From an uncultured virus (IMG/VR IMGVR_UViG_2806310702_000001) (lineage: Duplodnaviria; Heunggongvirae; Uroviricota; Caudoviricetes): 53,653 nucleotides of DNA. The notes under the pieces were generated by a model. The model saw nothing but the letters and a program-made list of their open reading frames with translations. It was not told the DNA's origin and did no database searches. Shown here piece after piece: positions 27,308-45,372 of the stretch; position 1 is the stretch's first letter; every line of letters begins with the position of its first letter. A program made the translations under genes and the position numbers. The stretch lies in IMG/VR virus record IMGVR_UViG_2806310702_000001. The stretch is one strand, 5' to 3'.

Positions 27308-28012
27308 TTATGCTATATTATTTAAGTTATCATTTATTAATTGTAATCCTTGTTCAGTTATTCCAATATTCTTAAATCCACCATTATCATAAATCTTAAA
27401 GTATTTATCACCTTTGTTATTAACCTCTTTAATAGTTTTATGTATATAACCATTATTTTTTGCCCATCTTGTAATCTGCCCTTTTTTAAGATTAAATGAT
27501 TTGGTAGCATCTGTAATACTTGCTATTCCGTTTTTATCTAATCTTTTCTTAGCTAATGCAACAAGCGGTTCATCTTCTTCAATCTTTTTAATTAATAAAA
27601 CTTTTTCTTCTTGTTCCTTTATCCACGCCTTAGCTCTTTCAATAGGGTCTTGTATTAAATAACTATCAGTTTGATTTTGTTCCATCTGATTAAACTTTTC
27701 AACGTATTTAGCCGTGAATAAAATTCCCTTTTCACCTGTAAACTTATTAGCTATAAATTCACAACCCATTTTAGTAAATAAGTAGCATTTTCTTTCTTTA
27801 TTTTGTGTATCTTTATAAGTAGATTCTATGAAATATTTAGCCGGTGCAATTCCGTTCTCACCTAAAATTGGAATTATACCAATCATTCCTGCACTTTTAG
27901 AACCTTCTAATTTTCTAAGAATTAATTTATGTTCTACCCCTAACATTTTTGCCACTTCTCTACTATCAATTGTTAATTCTTTGTTGCTGTTTAAAACTGC
28001 TAACTTATTCAT
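27308..28012 (-). CDS. Rha family regulator/antirepressor
   Basis: TIDSREVAKML...CYLFTKMGCEFIANKFTGEKGILFTAKYV; DPIERAKAWIKE. Confidence 0.88.
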   Translation of the reverse strand: MNKLAVLNSNKELTIDSREVAKMLGVEHKLILRKLEGSKSAGMIGIIPILGENGIAPAKYFIESTYKDTQNKERKCYLFTKMGCEFIANKFTGEKGILFTAKYVEKFNQMEQNQTDSYLIQDPIERAKAWIKEQEEKVLLIKKIEEDEPLVALAKKRLDKNGIASITDATKSFNLKKGQITRWAKNNGYIHKTIKEVNNKGDKYFKIYDNGGFKNIGITEQGLQLINDNLNNIA

Positions 28013-28320
28013 AATTTATCAACCGTCCTTTTATAATATTATTTTATGGCGTATTTCAATTTTTATAAAGCAGTTACAAATACACAAAGTTATCAGCAAA
28101 ATATTAAATTTAGGAAGGTTGATATTGACGTATACATAGGTAGCTTGTCCTACATATACCACATCTATATGGAGTAGTCTTTTGATAAAGGTGTAACTAT
28201 CTCAAAAACACCTATCTACTATTTAGTAGATAATATATTCAATTTTATAAATACTAAAAGCCTACCAAATTAGTTGATAAACTTTATATTATTTATAAAA
28301 CATTTTAATTTAATTTTATT

Positions 28321-28354
28321 TAAAAGGGTGTGATATTTATTATTCCACCCTTTT
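28321..28354. terminator. Terminator closing the RNA cluster
   Basis: TAAAAGGGTG...CACCCTTTTA inverted repeat. Confidence 0.7.
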
Positions 28355-28379
28355 AATAATTTTGTATCATGCATTTTTT

Positions 28380-28885
28380 ATTCGAAATAAAATTCTAGTC
28401 AGACCCTTGGCTTATGCAGAACCTTAATAAATCTCCGAATACTCTCTCTGACAAAAAGTATTCTTCAAAGATAGTTAATACTATTAAAATTACTCACTAC
28501 TCCGAGAATATTCATAATCATTGTAGTTTTCATTTATATACTAATTTGCTTCACTTTTGTGCATATCACACTACTCATTACTACGGATTCATGACTTATT
28601 GCCATTCCTAATTAGCATTTATAAAAATGTTACAACATTAGTGAGGTTATTATTCACTCACCAATGTTGTAGTGGGGAGCGAATCACCCACCTTTATACA
28701 TTTGGCTCATATTTTGATTCTCCGCCACAGAGAATTTTTATTATTACCCCACACGTGAGTAATATAGTTGTTATTATATGATGGATTTGAAACAGTAGCC
28801 CACGTGTTCTTCCATTCCAATTACGGGTATCTACACCCCAAGCACACCGACCAATATGGTAGCATTTATAGCGTTAAGCTAACGG
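28380..28885 (-). ncRNA. Large structured ncRNA, ROOL-like; ends approximate
   Basis: About 500 nt with no credible ORF, raised GC, many hairpins, directly 3' of a tRNA; motifs resemble ROOL RNAs as I recall them. Confidence 0.65.
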
Positions 28886-28923
28886 TCATAATTTAATACC
28901 TAGTTTATACACTGATTAGGTAT

Positions 28924-28998
28924 TGGCATAGGTAGTAGGAATCGAACCTACATCAATAGTTTTGGAGACTATCATGTTAGCCATTACACCATACCTAC
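28924..28998 (-). tRNA. tRNA-Trp (CCA)
   Basis: Full cloverleaf GTAGGTA/TACCTAT, ATAGT-CTCCAAA-ACTAT, GTAGG-TTCGATT-CCTAC, encoded CCA end. Confidence 0.95.
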
Positions 28999-29018
28999 AT
29001 ATTATATTTAAGGGAGGG

Positions 29019-29109
29019 AGGATTGCATGAGATTCGAACTCACATCTCTGATTTTATCTAAGGGGGAGGTGTATATAAAATCAGTATTTTACCGTTAAAC
29101 TACCAATCC
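29019..29109 (-). ncRNA. tRNA-like RNA with extended anticodon arm and anti-SD loop
   Basis: GGATTG/CAATCC acceptor, D arm, GTGAG-TTCGAAT-CTCAT T arm; 10-bp stem CTGATTTTAT/ATAAAATCAG enclosing ATACACCTCCCCCTTAG. Confidence 0.8.
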
Positions 29110-29158
29110 ATATTTCCTATGAAATTAATCATAGGAATTTTTAATTATTTGTTACTCT

Positions 29159-29380
29159 TTATCCTTCTGGTATTTCTTCTGATTCTGTCTTTTCTTTAAA
29201 TGATAATACTCCATATTTTCCATTAAAATATTTGATTTCATCTAAATCAGTTAGTAATTTAAAGTCTGTGTCTTCCTCAGTTTGAAAATATATCTTACCA
29301 TCTTCAATTTTAAAGTCAACTTCAACTTGTCCAATTGTATTCTCAGTTCTTTTAAATTTAACTAATTTCTTTTCTGCCAT
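29159..29380 (-). CDS. Small acidic phage protein (possibly YonK-like)
   Basis: AAGGAG RBS; size and position after phoH as in SPbeta-like phages. Confidence 0.55.
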   Translation of the reverse strand: MAEKKLVKFKRTENTIGQVEVDFKIEDGKIYFQTEEDTDFKLLTDLDEIKYFNGKYGVLSFKEKTESEEIPEG

Positions 29381-29432
29381 TGTTATTTATCGCTCCTTTC
29401 TATTTTTGATAAATTAATCTTATTTATAATGC

Positions 29433-29896: not shown

Positions 29897-30298
29897 TTAC
29901 CCTTGTTGCTGTATATATTTTTCTATTGTTTCTTTACTCACTTTACCAATACTACAGGCAAAATATCCATCACTCCAAAAAGTTCTTTCTTGCCAAAAAT
30001 GATTATTTAAATAGTATTGGGTTTTACCAACTCTCCAAACCCTATAAGTAGAAATTTGTTTAAACCATCTTACAATCTGCAATATTGATTGCGTTGGAGA
30101 ATATTGAACTAATAAATGGATGTGATCTTTGCCTACTTCCATTTCTATTATATTTAAATCTTTTTCTTCTGCTATTGCATAAAACAGTTTTTTAATATCA
30201 TCACCAAGTCTTATTAATAACTTTTTTCTATACTTACAAACAAATATCAAATGTGTCATTAATAAAAATTTACTATGATTTTTACTTATATATTTCAT
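29897..30298 (-). CDS. tnpA: Y1 HUH transposase
   Basis: HLIFVCKYR, DHIHLL, FWSDGYF, IEKYIQQQ. Confidence 0.95.
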   Translation of the reverse strand: MKYISKNHSKFLLMTHLIFVCKYRKKLLIRLGDDIKKLFYAIAEEKDLNIIEMEVGKDHIHLLVQYSPTQSILQIVRWFKQISTYRVWRVGKTQYYLNNHFWQERTFWSDGYFACSIGKVSKETIEKYIQQQG

Positions 30299-31634
30299 AA
30301 ACAAATCCTTTTTGGAATTTATAAGGTGTTAATAAATCCACTTTAGGCACTTTTTTAATCTCTTTAAGTGCAACATATTTACCACCATTTTGGCTTCCTT
30401 TTACTGTATAAATCTTACCCTCATATCTAACTAAATCATTTGGCTGATAGAAATATTTTTGTTTTCTAATTCTTCTTTGACCTTTTGAAATCTTCTCACC
30501 TCTATAAATTCTAAGGTTTTCTGTACTATGGTTTTTATTTCTAGTCCTTCTTCCACAGTTTAAGTCTCCACCTGAAACCTTATTACCAGTTCTAACATCT
30601 ATTATTTTACAATCATAAAACTTTTCTAAAGACCGATTATTCCTTCTTGCCTGCGATACATTAAATATATCATTATTTCTAATTTGATTAATTCCTTTTG
30701 CTATCGCAAATGCATCATTATAATGTGTTTTTTTAATTTTATGTGTAATTCTATGATTTTTAGTTATATAGCCATAGGTTATTGAAATGTTACTGTGTTT
30801 TTCTTTAAGAGTATTAATTAAATACCATCTTATCATGCTCATAAAAGTAGCATCTTTAAATCCTCTAACTTTTTTTCCATTTATGCACCAATCATAAAGA
30901 AATTTACCTTTTTTATGGTTAGGTGAAGTATGGCATTTACTACAAAGTGTAATTAAATTGTTAGGACTATCTGAACCACCTTCACTTCTATACTTAATAT
31001 GATGAATTTCTAAAATCTGTTCTTTAGACTTATTTTTACAATTAGGATTTTGACATTTGTGATTATCTCTATGAAGAATGTACTCTCTTAAGTTCCAGAA
31101 CCCCATCATTTCTCCTTGCTGATATTCTTCACCACTTATATTAGGGTTTTTGATTTTCTGTATATCAAAATTTGCTATTTCTACAACGCATTTTGTTATA
31201 GGTAGTACATTATATAAACTATCAATAAATTTAATATGACTATCTAATTTATGTTGTAAGCTAGGTGCTAACCAACCTTTGTGCTTACTTTTGGTTCTAT
31301 TATTCCATCTAGCTTTTCTATATCTCAATCTATTTCTTCTTTGCCTTCTATACATTGCTTTTTCTTGTATTCTATCTTTTATTCCTTGAAGAAGTTTAAC
31401 TTCACCAACTATTAATTCTTTCTTATCAGTTATTGCACTAAAACCTATATTCAAATATCCACTATCAATTCCTAAAGTTATTCTTTGAGTATAATTACTA
31501 GTTTCATAATTTAATTGAACAGTAAATGGTTTTAACTCTTTAACTATCGCTTTCTTATTCTTTAAAAGTTTTCTTGCTTTTGCTTCATTTGTTGGCATTA
31601 ATGGATTCCCATTAATATCTATTACATATACCAT
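30282..31634 (-). CDS. iscB: RNA-guided endonuclease IscB
   Basis: PLMP N-terminus, RuvC-I GIDSG, RRQRR bridge helix, RuvC-II VVE, HNH, RuvC-III HYNDA. Confidence 0.95.
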   Translation of the reverse strand: MVYVIDINGNPLMPTNEAKARKLLKNKKAIVKELKPFTVQLNYETSNYTQRITLGIDSGYLNIGFSAITDKKELIVGEVKLLQGIKDRIQEKAMYRRQRRNRLRYRKARWNNRTKSKHKGWLAPSLQHKLDSHIKFIDSLYNVLPITKCVVEIANFDIQKIKNPNISGEEYQQGEMMGFWNLREYILHRDNHKCQNPNCKNKSKEQILEIHHIKYRSEGGSDSPNNLITLCSKCHTSPNHKKGKFLYDWCINGKKVRGFKDATFMSMIRWYLINTLKEKHSNISITYGYITKNHRITHKIKKTHYNDAFAIAKGINQIRNNDIFNVSQARRNNRSLEKFYDCKIIDVRTGNKVSGGDLNCGRRTRNKNHSTENLRIYRGEKISKGQRRIRKQKYFYQPNDLVRYEGKIYTVKGSQNGGKYVALKEIKKVPKVDLLTPYKFQKGFVYEIYK

Positions 31635-31649
31635 AAAATTTAATCCTTT

Positions 31650-31894
31650 CAGATAATTTAACCTCACCTTTCGGTGGTAAGTTCTCTTCGCCAATGATTA
31701 AAAAGGTTTTGTATCTTTAACACACTTTTCCTGCCATCAGAAATGTTTAATGTTAAAGCGTAGTGTTCAAGACTAGAGAAGTATCTTGAAGTACCTATAT
31801 ATTCTTAATAATCGTAGTCATTTAAGACTTAGGCTATTCAACCGACTTGCAATTTCTTACAAGCCACTACCCTTTAGGGTAGTTGGCAGTTGAC
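31650..31894 (-). ncRNA. omegaRNA (HEARO-type) scaffold
   Basis: GTCAAC...CTAAAG...GGCTTG...AGCCTAAG...GACTACG...CATTGGCGAAG pattern upstream of iscB. Confidence 0.88.
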
Positions 31895-32476
31895 TTCTAT
31901 ATTTGTATTCATAAATTTTATCTAAATCTATATTATGTATTACTAAGTATTCATTATCTAACAATTCTAAGTAATTCTCATTATTTTCATATTTAATGTA
32001 TAAGTCGTTTATTTGATCTGTATTTAATTCTATTTCTCTATAACCTTTGTATTCTTCCTGTATATTTATACAATTATTCTTAATCTTATTTGTTTCTAAT
32101 TTAAAATAATCTCTTGCAATTAAATTGCACAATATGTCGTTTGTTGTAAATACTGCTTGGTTACCAAGTGTCTTAGCACACGCAATAATTAAATTATCAT
32201 GTGTAATTGGTAAATTTAATGATTCTACTAATTCATAATGTAATTGTTCAACTATAATTACTTCATATTTATCTTGATTTTCATTTAAAAATCTTACTAC
32301 TTGTCTTGCCTTATATTTTATCTCTTGATCCTTATTTGCACTTGTCTTAATATTTTCTAATTCATCTAATGTTATAGAAGATATGTAAAACTTATCTGTT
32401 TGCTTTCTAATGCAATCTAAGTTCTGTAATAGTATATTGGTATCATAAAACTTTATTTTCTTAATTTCGTCCATAC
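31895..32476 (-). pseudogene. PIN-PhoH N-terminal part, interrupted by the IscB element
   Basis: FYDTNILL, LDELENIK, DNLII, FTTND PIN motifs; frame runs into the element. Confidence 0.8.
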
Positions 32477-32533
32477 CATTCACATTTACCCTTTCATTAT
32501 ATAATAGGGGAAGAATAAACTTCCCCATATGTC

Positions 32534-44979: not shown

Positions 44980-45129
44980 GTTTTTATATATATTTTCTTT
45001 TTATATATATTTTCTTTTTATACACTTCATTCTCTTTGCATTTTTGCTTGGACTGTACTCATGTGCTATTGCAAAAACGCTTGGACTGTACCAAATATTA
45101 AGTACAGCGTAAGCAAAAATGCAATAGCA
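44980..45129. repeat. Iteron-like direct and inverted repeat cluster
   Basis: GCTTGGACTGTAC at 45046 and 45079; degenerate inverted copy at 45102; 14-bp IR 45036/45111; AT-rich tandem repeat 44980-45022. Confidence 0.75.
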
Positions 45130-45372
45130 TATTTCATTCATTTTAATACCTGTATTTTTAGAATTTGTGCATATGTTCACAACCCCCCCCCTCCTATATG
45201 TAAATTTATATATTTTAATATTAGTGAATAAATATACATTTTTAATTATTGACTTAACTAATTTTTACCGTACATTAACTATAACACGATATATTAATTT
45301 TTTCAATAATTTTAATATATTTTAATTTAATTTTGATTATTTGGTAATAGGGATAACAATTTTTAATCCCTA

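Follow-up and report, generated by a model that had tools for sequence, protein, structure and literature searches.

A predicted non-decoding, tRNA-derived RNA gene with a C-rich loop in phage-plasmids of Clostridium botulinum group III

We analysed a stretch of 53,653 nucleotides (nt) from an uncultured virus (IMG/VR record IMGVR_UViG_2806310702_000001), called the window below, and found that positions 29019..29109 of its minus strand hold a gene with the body of a transfer RNA (tRNA) and a long C-rich loop in the place of the anticodon loop. Judged by its sequence and its relatives, this tRNA look-alike is a real, conserved and non-decoding feature that belongs with the tRNA-derived or tRNA-like non-coding RNAs of phages. 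An earlier sequence-only reading had described it as a tRNA scaffold displaying a loop of the anti-Shine-Dalgarno (anti-SD) type, and the letters are as described there. The explanation that we favour, still tentatively, is that the gene makes a small RNA that is processed like a tRNA, does not decode and shows a C-rich loop able to bind Shine-Dalgarno (SD) sequences.

Architecture and upkeep of the tRNA look-alike

The Rfam tRNA family RF00005 matched 29019-29109 on the minus strand with 48.5 bits (gathering score 29) over model positions 1-71, and its alignment located 21 inserted bases at the anticodon loop. The same model recognised the cloverleaf in four relatives as well, with 47.6-51 bits. 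The gene and its immediate surroundings are made up as follows.

29019..29109, minus strand: tRNA-derived, predicted non-decoding RNA gene, 91 nt (RF00005, 48.5 bits; covariance model R1)
29109-29103 with 29026-29020, minus strand: acceptor stem
29100-29086, minus strand: D arm
29048..29084, minus strand: extended anticodon arm with a 10-pair stem, 29084-29075 with 29057-29048
29058..29074, minus strand: 17-nt C-rich loop AUACACCUCCCCCUUAG, holding unpaired UCCC, CCUCC and CACCUCC
29043-29027, minus strand: T arm
29019, minus strand: discriminator U
28999..29018, minus strand: spacer or 3' trailer, 20 nt, with a second C-rich copy CCUCCCUCCCUUAAAUA that begins in the 3' strand of the acceptor stem
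28924..28998, minus strand: tRNA-Trp(CCA) with encoded CCA (ARAGORN; Rfam 65.8 bits)

Folded as a single sequence, the window RNA forms the acceptor stem, the T arm, a perfect 10-pair stem and the 17-nt loop (29074..29058), at an ordinary energy of -17 kcal/mol (z = -1.0 to -1.1). The absence of an encoded CCA, which the sequence-only reading had pointed out, was confirmed: discriminator U73 is followed by CCC in the window and by CCC, CTC or TAT among the variants introduced below. The position 20 nt upstream of an intact tRNA-Trp(cca), 28998..28924, was confirmed too.

For comparison we used the window together with 10 fetched loci, a set of 11 copies that represent seven distinct sequence variants. 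Model R1 scored the 11 copies at 90.8-113.9 bits, well separated from every ordinary tRNA, and the insert was present in each of them; it is therefore not a strain-specific addition to otherwise ordinary tRNAs. All seven variants have a loop of 14-17 nt on an A-U-rich stem of 9-10 pairs, with 27 nt between the basal five pairs of the anticodon stem, and not a 7-nt anticodon loop with U33 and a usable anticodon. Under the usual identity rules, the look-alike also fits none of the synthetases that act independently of the anticodon. On these features, it is a tRNA-derived gene that would be incapable of reading codons.

A working tRNA could in principle arise by removal of an intron, or the oversized loop might read G-rich codons by frameshifting or as quadruplets. 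When introns are allowed, ARAGORN does call the gene, as 'tRNA-Tyr(ata)' interrupted by a 20-nt intron; its body is similar to that of tRNA-Gly(UCC), and glycine tRNAs with an extra C are classic frameshift suppressors. We nevertheless regard this as very improbable. The placement of the splice sites by ARAGORN is arbitrary, and each in-register excision gives an anticodon of A and U only, unrelated to a body that is Gly/Trp/Arg-like. There is no bulge-helix-bulge, as the 10-pair stem is perfect and lacks 3-nt bulges; 20 nt is far below the size of self-splicing introns, no intron family matched even at E <= 1, and neither an RNA ligase nor a splicing endonuclease was among the 34 open reading frames (ORFs) scanned. 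The acceptor pairs 2:71 and 3:70, presumably required for Gly identity, are not kept, and a loop that varies between 14 and 17 nt cannot hold a reading frame. The gene is also an annotation trap: ARAGORN at default settings missed it and called the neighbouring tRNA-Trp(cca) alone, its intron mode takes it for a tRNA-Tyr(AUA), and for Rfam it is a plain tRNA. Of the tRNA finders that the sequence-only reading had proposed as a check, ARAGORN called it only with introns allowed; the Rfam tRNA match covers it end to end. The GenBank record of phage D-1873 has no feature annotated under the look-alike.

The pairing of the tRNA body has been maintained. Across the seven sequences 98.3% of 179 stem cells are paired, compared with 34-53% when the partners are slid. 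In variant L017 both partners have been replaced in two pairs of the T stem (G-C to A-U and A-U to G-C), and two such compensatory pairs were reached by only 14 of 500 column shuffles. Seven one-sided changes, as read from the per-pair table, keep pairing through G.U; they lie at 5:68, 7:66, 10:25, 49:65 (two changes) and two positions of the extended stem, and these G.U pairs are compatible with a minus-strand RNA only. Pairing is lost through two changes, A43 in BKT2873 and L016 and G7 in the window, where acceptor pair 7 (G7.G66) is a G.G mismatch and the six other variants all have U.G or U-A. The T-loop contact bases and most of the D-loop contact bases are invariant, the T loop reading UUCGAAU, UUCAAAU, UUCGAUC or UUCAAGU. 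In the extended stem, seven of the ten pairs never vary, and two change A to G and so keep G.U.

The C-rich loop and its predicted partners

The loop stands out from a strand that is poor in C: it is 47% C in the window against 9.9% for the strand, and its C fraction is 0.41-0.67 across the variants against 0.099. CACCTCC, at 29071..29065 on the minus strand, is one of only two minus-strand copies in 53.6 kb. The loops read as follows.

Window, D-1873, 3859 and BKT015925: AUACACCUCCCC(C)UUAG or ...UUAA(A)
BKT2873 and L016: UACCCUCCCCCC(C)AU
L017: CUAUACCUCUCCCUUAA

Carrier strains have the loop variants CACCUCCCC, CCCUCCCCCC and CCUCUCCC. UCCC occurs in all seven variants, CCUCC in six and CACCUCC in four, so the loop conservation that the sequence-only reading had asked about holds for a C-rich loop drawn as unpaired in every variant and fails for the exact anti-SD 7-mer. 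The unpaired state of UCCC is a prediction and holds in four of the seven minimum-energy folds. According to the portion of PMC2790875 available, unpaired UCCC motifs of Firmicutes small RNAs bind SD sequences and block initiation. The C-rich loop has been kept in all variants and therefore fits the logic of these SD-binding RNAs, as far as that source describes it (PMC2790875).

If this is its function, the tRNA body would get the RNA cut from a longer transcript by the tRNA-processing enzymes of the cell. RNase P would cut at G1, which we infer from the intact stack of acceptor and T arm, and RNase Z or exonucleases would act after U73. The body would also stabilise the product, as in engineered 'tRNA scaffolds', in which the anticodon stem is lengthened and its loop exchanged for a chosen RNA, which thereby gains processing and stability; those are man-made, and the look-alike would be a natural RNA of the same design, with the benefit presumed. 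The exposed C-rich loop would then pair with the G-rich SD regions of mRNAs and lower their translation like the UCCC loops of RsaE/RoxS and RNAIII. The pairing would be broad, favouring ribosome-binding sites (RBSs) with a G run, with no single identifiable gene as its aim. The more specific form of this explanation, a natural 'tRNA scaffold' riboregulator whose UCCC/anti-SD loop and trailer copy damp mRNAs with G-run RBSs, is possible but doubtful; its targets might be, for example, maintenance or early genes of the phage itself or those of co-resident elements.

The loop resembles the trailer. Their local alignment sets CCTCC--CCCTTAGATAAAAT against CCTCCCTCCCTTAAATATAAT, with a score that 9 of 2000 shuffles reach in the window, and the similarity recurs in six of seven variants. 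It is absent in L017, which has neither a C-rich trailer nor a tRNA-Trp; the tRNA-Trp follows the look-alike in the six other variants and was not found in the record holding L017. As a separate observation, loci L012 (1949-1991), L013 (1852-1894) and L014 (1626-1670) have an extra ~25 nt (AAGGCTTAACGCCGATTGAATT...) between look-alike and tRNA-Trp, and a similar sequence, AGCTTAACGC, lies downstream of the window tRNA-Trp near 28884.

The resemblance to the trailer fits a duplication, and with it an explanation in which the gene is a cis-acting element for processing and stability only, its tRNA shape separating the upstream mRNA from the downstream RNA genes. After RNase P cleavage the mRNA would end in a conserved hairpin, and the loop would have no trans role, being left over from a C-rich anticodon loop or from duplication of the 3' trailer. 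The position is suitable, since the gene begins 49 nt past the stop codon of a 73-amino-acid (aa) ORF (29380..29159) and the conserved hairpin ends 4 nt before G1; the nearest ordinary tRNAs do have C-rich anticodon loops, and the loop is the least conserved part of the gene. We consider this explanation unlikely, because a cut signal needs neither an extension kept at 9-10 pairs nor a C-rich loop kept through indels, because the tRNA-Trp next door already supplies processing sites, and because the element persists in L017 without tRNA-Trp and C-rich trailer.

When the loop was compared with the 137 ORF starts of the window, 12 paired at -12 kcal/mol or better. Composition-matched shuffled loops paired with 5.3 +/- 2.8 starts at this energy, and 2% of 200 shuffles reached 12; the letter order of the loop therefore favours RBSs. 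Mean pairing energies of real and shuffled loops were not different. The individual candidates fared poorly. The tubZ RBS, one of two targets named by the sequence-only reading, ranks second (-16.7 kcal/mol), and the comparison does not single it out as a specific target: the site is identical in all five plasmids, including one without the RNA. The other, the RBS of the Mrr-like gene, ranks seventh (-13.8 kcal/mol); nine of the 12 pairs claimed there involve loop bases and the remaining three do not. That gene is absent from D-1873 p1 and is located on p2 plasmids in other strains, and its site, GAGGTGT[A/C]T, shows no co-variation with the loop, so this target was rejected. The best-scoring candidate, a 59-aa ORF at 45180..45001 (-22.8 kcal/mol), was set aside as low-complexity pairing of a C run with a G run; the upstream half of this region, with the RBS, is unmatched in three of five relatives. 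This ORF (45001-45180, minus strand), which has no Pfam match, lies between a MerR-like gene and a 254-aa ORF and is preceded by GGAGGGGGGGGG, with a run of nine G in the RBS that is likely to be a slippage-prone tract. Control of the downstream Ant gene in the manner of P1 c4 was likewise rejected, as its RBS, AAGGACGG, is not complementary to the loop, and the RBS of this Rha/Ant gene (start at 28012) is not among the loop-pairing candidates. Pairing of the loop with GGGGUGUA (~28843..28836, downstream of the tRNA-Trp) has eight pairs in the window, is broken in BKT015925 and is absent elsewhere.

Several results weigh against an SD-binding small RNA. A 16S-type tail motif pairs with 23 starts against the 12 of the loop, so that pairing of the loop is not selective; as modelled, its pairing with RBSs appears generic. 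A search of the window with the 15-nt complement of the loop gave only one other match, with three mismatches, and no near-complement was common to the three plasmids that were searched whole. No other part of the gene varies as much as the loop, which changes in sequence and length through several indels and substitutions, with the exact 7-mer in only four of seven variants. The extended stem is perfect in two variants only: two others have C.A as the basal pair of the anticodon stem, and a 1-nt bulge occurs in three. The perfection of the added pairing, which the sequence-only reading had used as an argument, is thus a property of the window and not of the family. The stem shows no compensatory change among the seven variants, so the covariation sought there was found in the tRNA body alone. 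It is present in the minimum-energy folds of four variants and missing from three, and RNAalifold recovered the acceptor and T arms and not the extended stem, pairing columns 20-26 with 31-37 instead in a local 7-pair hairpin. The look-alike body evolves faster than the tRNA-Trp, which has 1-2 differences in 75 positions between relatives. Part of the C-richness of the loop may have been inherited and not selected, since the nearest ordinary tRNAs have the C-rich anticodon loops CUUCCAA, CUCCAAA and CUCCUAA. Finally, the gene seems dispensable for at least one member of the group, because the complete p1 plasmid of strain Stockholm lacks it. Of the RBS-blocking RNA first proposed, the tRNA-derived, non-decoding gene and its maintained C-rich loop survive these comparisons; the mechanism is possible but generic, and the two RBSs named as targets are not supported.

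In loci L012 (1858-1948) and L013 (1761-1851), which have a 2-nt insert in the D loop, D-arm GUUUAAG can form seven pairs with CUUAAAU of the big loop, and this pairing appears in the minimum-energy folds of both. It may be chance or a real alternative fold.

Some of the same results would suit a decaying tRNA pseudogene, in which an insertion disabled a phage tRNA gene in the common ancestor of a narrow lineage too recently for the structure to have collapsed. The carriers are close relatives (86-98% identity over 29015-29140, the element with its upstream hairpin), the gene evolves faster than tRNA-Trp, and its stems are blemished by the G.G of the window acceptor, the C.A at the base of the anticodon stem and the bulges. 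Fold energies are ordinary, with z of -1.0 to -2.1 across the variants, and one relative has lost the whole module. We find this explanation distinctly improbable. It does not account for the two double compensatory changes in the T stem, for the seven of nine one-sided stem changes that keep pairing, or for the survival of C-richness and UCCC through indels on a strand with 10% C. In most pairs compared, moreover, the divergence of the body is about half that of third codon positions nearby (7-13% against 14-28% in the adjacent ORF). The rate comparisons with L017 go in the opposite direction, which suggests mosaic recombination. The pair-keeping changes and the low divergence of the body, set against its faster change than that of tRNA-Trp, point to a fold under constraint that is weaker than the constraint on a working tRNA. 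If the gene were merely a slowly decaying tRNA relic, it would be ordinary.

Distribution, origin and kindred RNAs

All carriers of the look-alike are c-st-like phage-plasmids of C. botulinum group III. Identity over this region of the window is 95.9% with phage D-1873 and 86-89% with three p1 plasmids, and from these relatives the window can be assigned to a c-st-like phage-plasmid of the same group. Whole-record searches found the look-alike in three of four complete plasmids, Stockholm p1 being the one without it, and a fifth plasmid, p1 of strain 1873, has it by BLAST and pattern. In PLSDB it occurred in only four plasmids. BLAST with the 91 nt gave no matches in 401 sampled genomes of one family, and R1 found ordinary tRNAs only in 26 genomes of one Clostridium-related genus. 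An exact-stem pattern gave nine loci in viral contigs, with the D-1873 record as the sole relative; a loose D-arm pattern gave at least 120 stretches in genome contigs, with no relative among the 80 fetched; and a tighter pattern gave four chance matches and no model match in metagenome contigs. The family thus appears to be narrow. In Stockholm p1 (L152, NZ_CP063817.1 155000-165000) small ORFs, look-alike, tRNA-Trp and drum RNA are missing together as a module, and IS200/IS605 and IS607/TnpB elements lie between HU and the antirepressor instead.

In the same 26 genomes, the ordinary tRNAs that R1 scored best were Gly(UCC) (7 matches, 43.6-51.6 bits), Trp(CCA) (21 matches, 46.2-47.3 bits) and Arg(CCU) (2 matches, 37.2 bits), and by this measure they are the closest ordinary relatives of the look-alike. 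With tRNA-Gly(UCC) it shares the U discriminator, a 4-nt variable loop, the G49.U65 pair and the D loop AAUGGUA, although 2:71 and 3:70 of its acceptor stem are not of the Gly type. Unlike ordinary Gly, Trp and Arg tRNAs, it has no 7-nt anticodon loop and no encoded CCA.

The look-alike has partial counterparts among known RNAs. Phage T4 makes RNA species I and II, stable RNAs of unassigned role with tRNA-like parts. According to the available part of PMC2330249 they belong to the tRNA cluster; they resemble the look-alike in lying among phage tRNA genes and differ from it in size and architecture. With RsaE/RoxS and RNAIII, as the source outlines them (PMC2790875), the look-alike shares a UCCC loop predicted to be unpaired, its only loop feature that never varies, complementarity to SD sequences and a second C-rich copy nearby. 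Those RNAs have a 5' hairpin and a terminator, whereas the look-alike has a full tRNA body and no terminator of its own, and Rfam small-RNA families, RsaE/RoxS and RNAIII included, gave no match at 28200-29400 with E <= 1.

The C4 antisense RNA of phages P1 and P7, to which P4 CI is akin, is another counterpart. C4 is an RNase P substrate (PMC11143913, whose accessible text cites Hartmann et al. 1995). The look-alike would likewise be a phage small RNA released by the tRNA machinery, and it lies upstream of an antirepressor-type (Rha/Ant) gene. In contrast to C4, which in the account available pairs within its own operon, it faces an Ant RBS that is not complementary and is separated from it by a terminator-like hairpin; it is also a complete cloverleaf, matched in Rfam by tRNA alone, and not a partial mimic. 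In Bacillus cereus, a pseudo-tRNA named tRNA-Other acts outside translation (PMC3399842). Compared by that description, both are Firmicute pseudo-tRNAs tied to mobile elements, non-translational and proposed to regulate by RBS pairing; tRNA-Other differs in having a normal anticodon loop (Trp) and in being part of a much longer transcript (PMC3399842).

Literature searches returned no description of this element, and the combination of a tRNA-like, RNase P-released RNA with an SD-binding C-rich loop was not found described in them. The available part of the BKT015925 genome paper mentions tRNAs only as counts and method (PMC3098183). Provided that the RNA is produced and works by way of its loop, it would join the RNase P-released tRNA-like RNAs with C-rich SD-binding loops, and a scaffold riboregulator, if true, would be a new way to build a bacterial trans-acting small RNA. 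C. botulinum group III owes its toxigenicity to these phage-plasmids, which carry the botulinum neurotoxin locus. Since the gene lies in their regulatory region, it could matter for their maintenance or switching.

Genomic neighbourhood

The sizeable genes around the look-alike are all on the minus strand. Read 5' to 3' on that strand, the order is a PIN-domain ORF, a HEARO RNA with IscB and an IS200-type transposase, a DUF6275 ORF, the 73-aa ORF, the conserved hairpin, the look-alike, tRNA-Trp, about 450 nt, a drum RNA, a terminator-like hairpin and the Rha/Ant antirepressor gene, which has its own weak promoter-like site. The further RNA features are these.

29114..29137, strand not assigned: palindrome or hairpin TTCCTATGA-N6-TCATAGGAA, ending 4 nt before G1
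28366..28473, minus strand: drum RNA (RF02958, 51.5 bits; gathering score 43)
28320..28356, minus strand: terminator-like hairpin GGGUG...CACCC followed by UUUU, after the drum RNA (inverted repeat and sequence)

Drum motifs are reported with terminators following them, and the portion of PMC5737381 available ties them to a nearby protein family, their function being left unassigned by its authors. The terminator-like hairpin has a loop that exceeds the length limit of the terminator scanner and was hence not listed by it. We infer that look-alike, tRNA-Trp and drum RNA are co-transcribed as a small cluster of RNA genes, of which the drum RNA is probably the last member. Among four sequencing runs compared as contigs, two taken to be RNA gave short contigs of low depth over 28894-29084; one of the two is probably DNA, and they carry no weight for expression. 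At E <= 1 the Rfam search of 28200-29400 returned tRNA, drum and one sub-threshold mir-83; the latter match, on the upstream hairpin, has 27.2 bits against a gathering score of 44 and was taken as chance.

The stem of the upstream palindrome is invariant and its 6-nt spacer varies among relatives. No other copies of it, as would be expected of operators, occur in the window. It may be a 5' leader hairpin, an operator overlapping a weak -10, or a plus-strand terminator, and the terminator scan gave it a score on the plus strand alone. This last result would suit a plus-strand mini-gene, antisense to the look-alike, with the strong RBS GGGAGGGAGGA, an ATG at 29026-29028, a 23-codon ORF and the hairpin at 29114-29137 as its terminator, and the short ORF is open in the five variants read (window, D-1873, 3859, BKT015925 and BKT2873). 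Such a gene is hardly to be credited: the indels in the C run shift its frame, leaving the C-terminal half unconserved (16-24 codons with different residues), L017 lacks both start codon and RBS, the G.U-keeping changes suit a minus-strand RNA only, and the sizeable neighbours run the other way.

The surroundings also bear on a protein-directed mimic or decoy. Here the L-shaped tRNA body would capture an enzyme that handles tRNAs, or else a nuclease or transferase with which the host defends itself by attacking tRNAs. In another version the loop would stand in for the 16S rRNA 3' tail and attract a factor that reads this tail. In both, the protein would be titrated during infection or lysogeny. 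The gene does have a tRNA of the phage as its neighbour, and the region, an early or regulatory one, also contains Rha/Ant, BRO, HU and PIN-PhoH genes; the bases for tertiary contacts (most of those in the D loop) and the T loop are kept in the variants. This reading is nonetheless quite unlikely: no candidate partner was identified, nucleases that read anticodon loops would not recognise the loop of the look-alike, and the computations made here do not separate a decoy from RNA-RNA pairing.

The ~450 nt between tRNA-Trp and drum RNA (28474-28923, minus strand) hold no convincing ORF, and a hairpin, ATACCTA...TAGGTAT, directly follows the CCA. The start of this stretch is common to p1BKT015925; D-1873, 3859/11 and BKT2873 have a 639-bp ORF after the tRNA-Trp instead. 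On the far side, 29897-32528 (minus strand) contains IscB (470 aa, RRXRR and HNH domains), the HEARO RNA (31894..31677) and the IS200-type transposase (135 aa), adjoined by the 223-aa PIN-domain ORF. Because D-1873 has a single 427-aa 'PhoH family protein' at the same place, the mobile element may have split a PIN-PhoH gene here.

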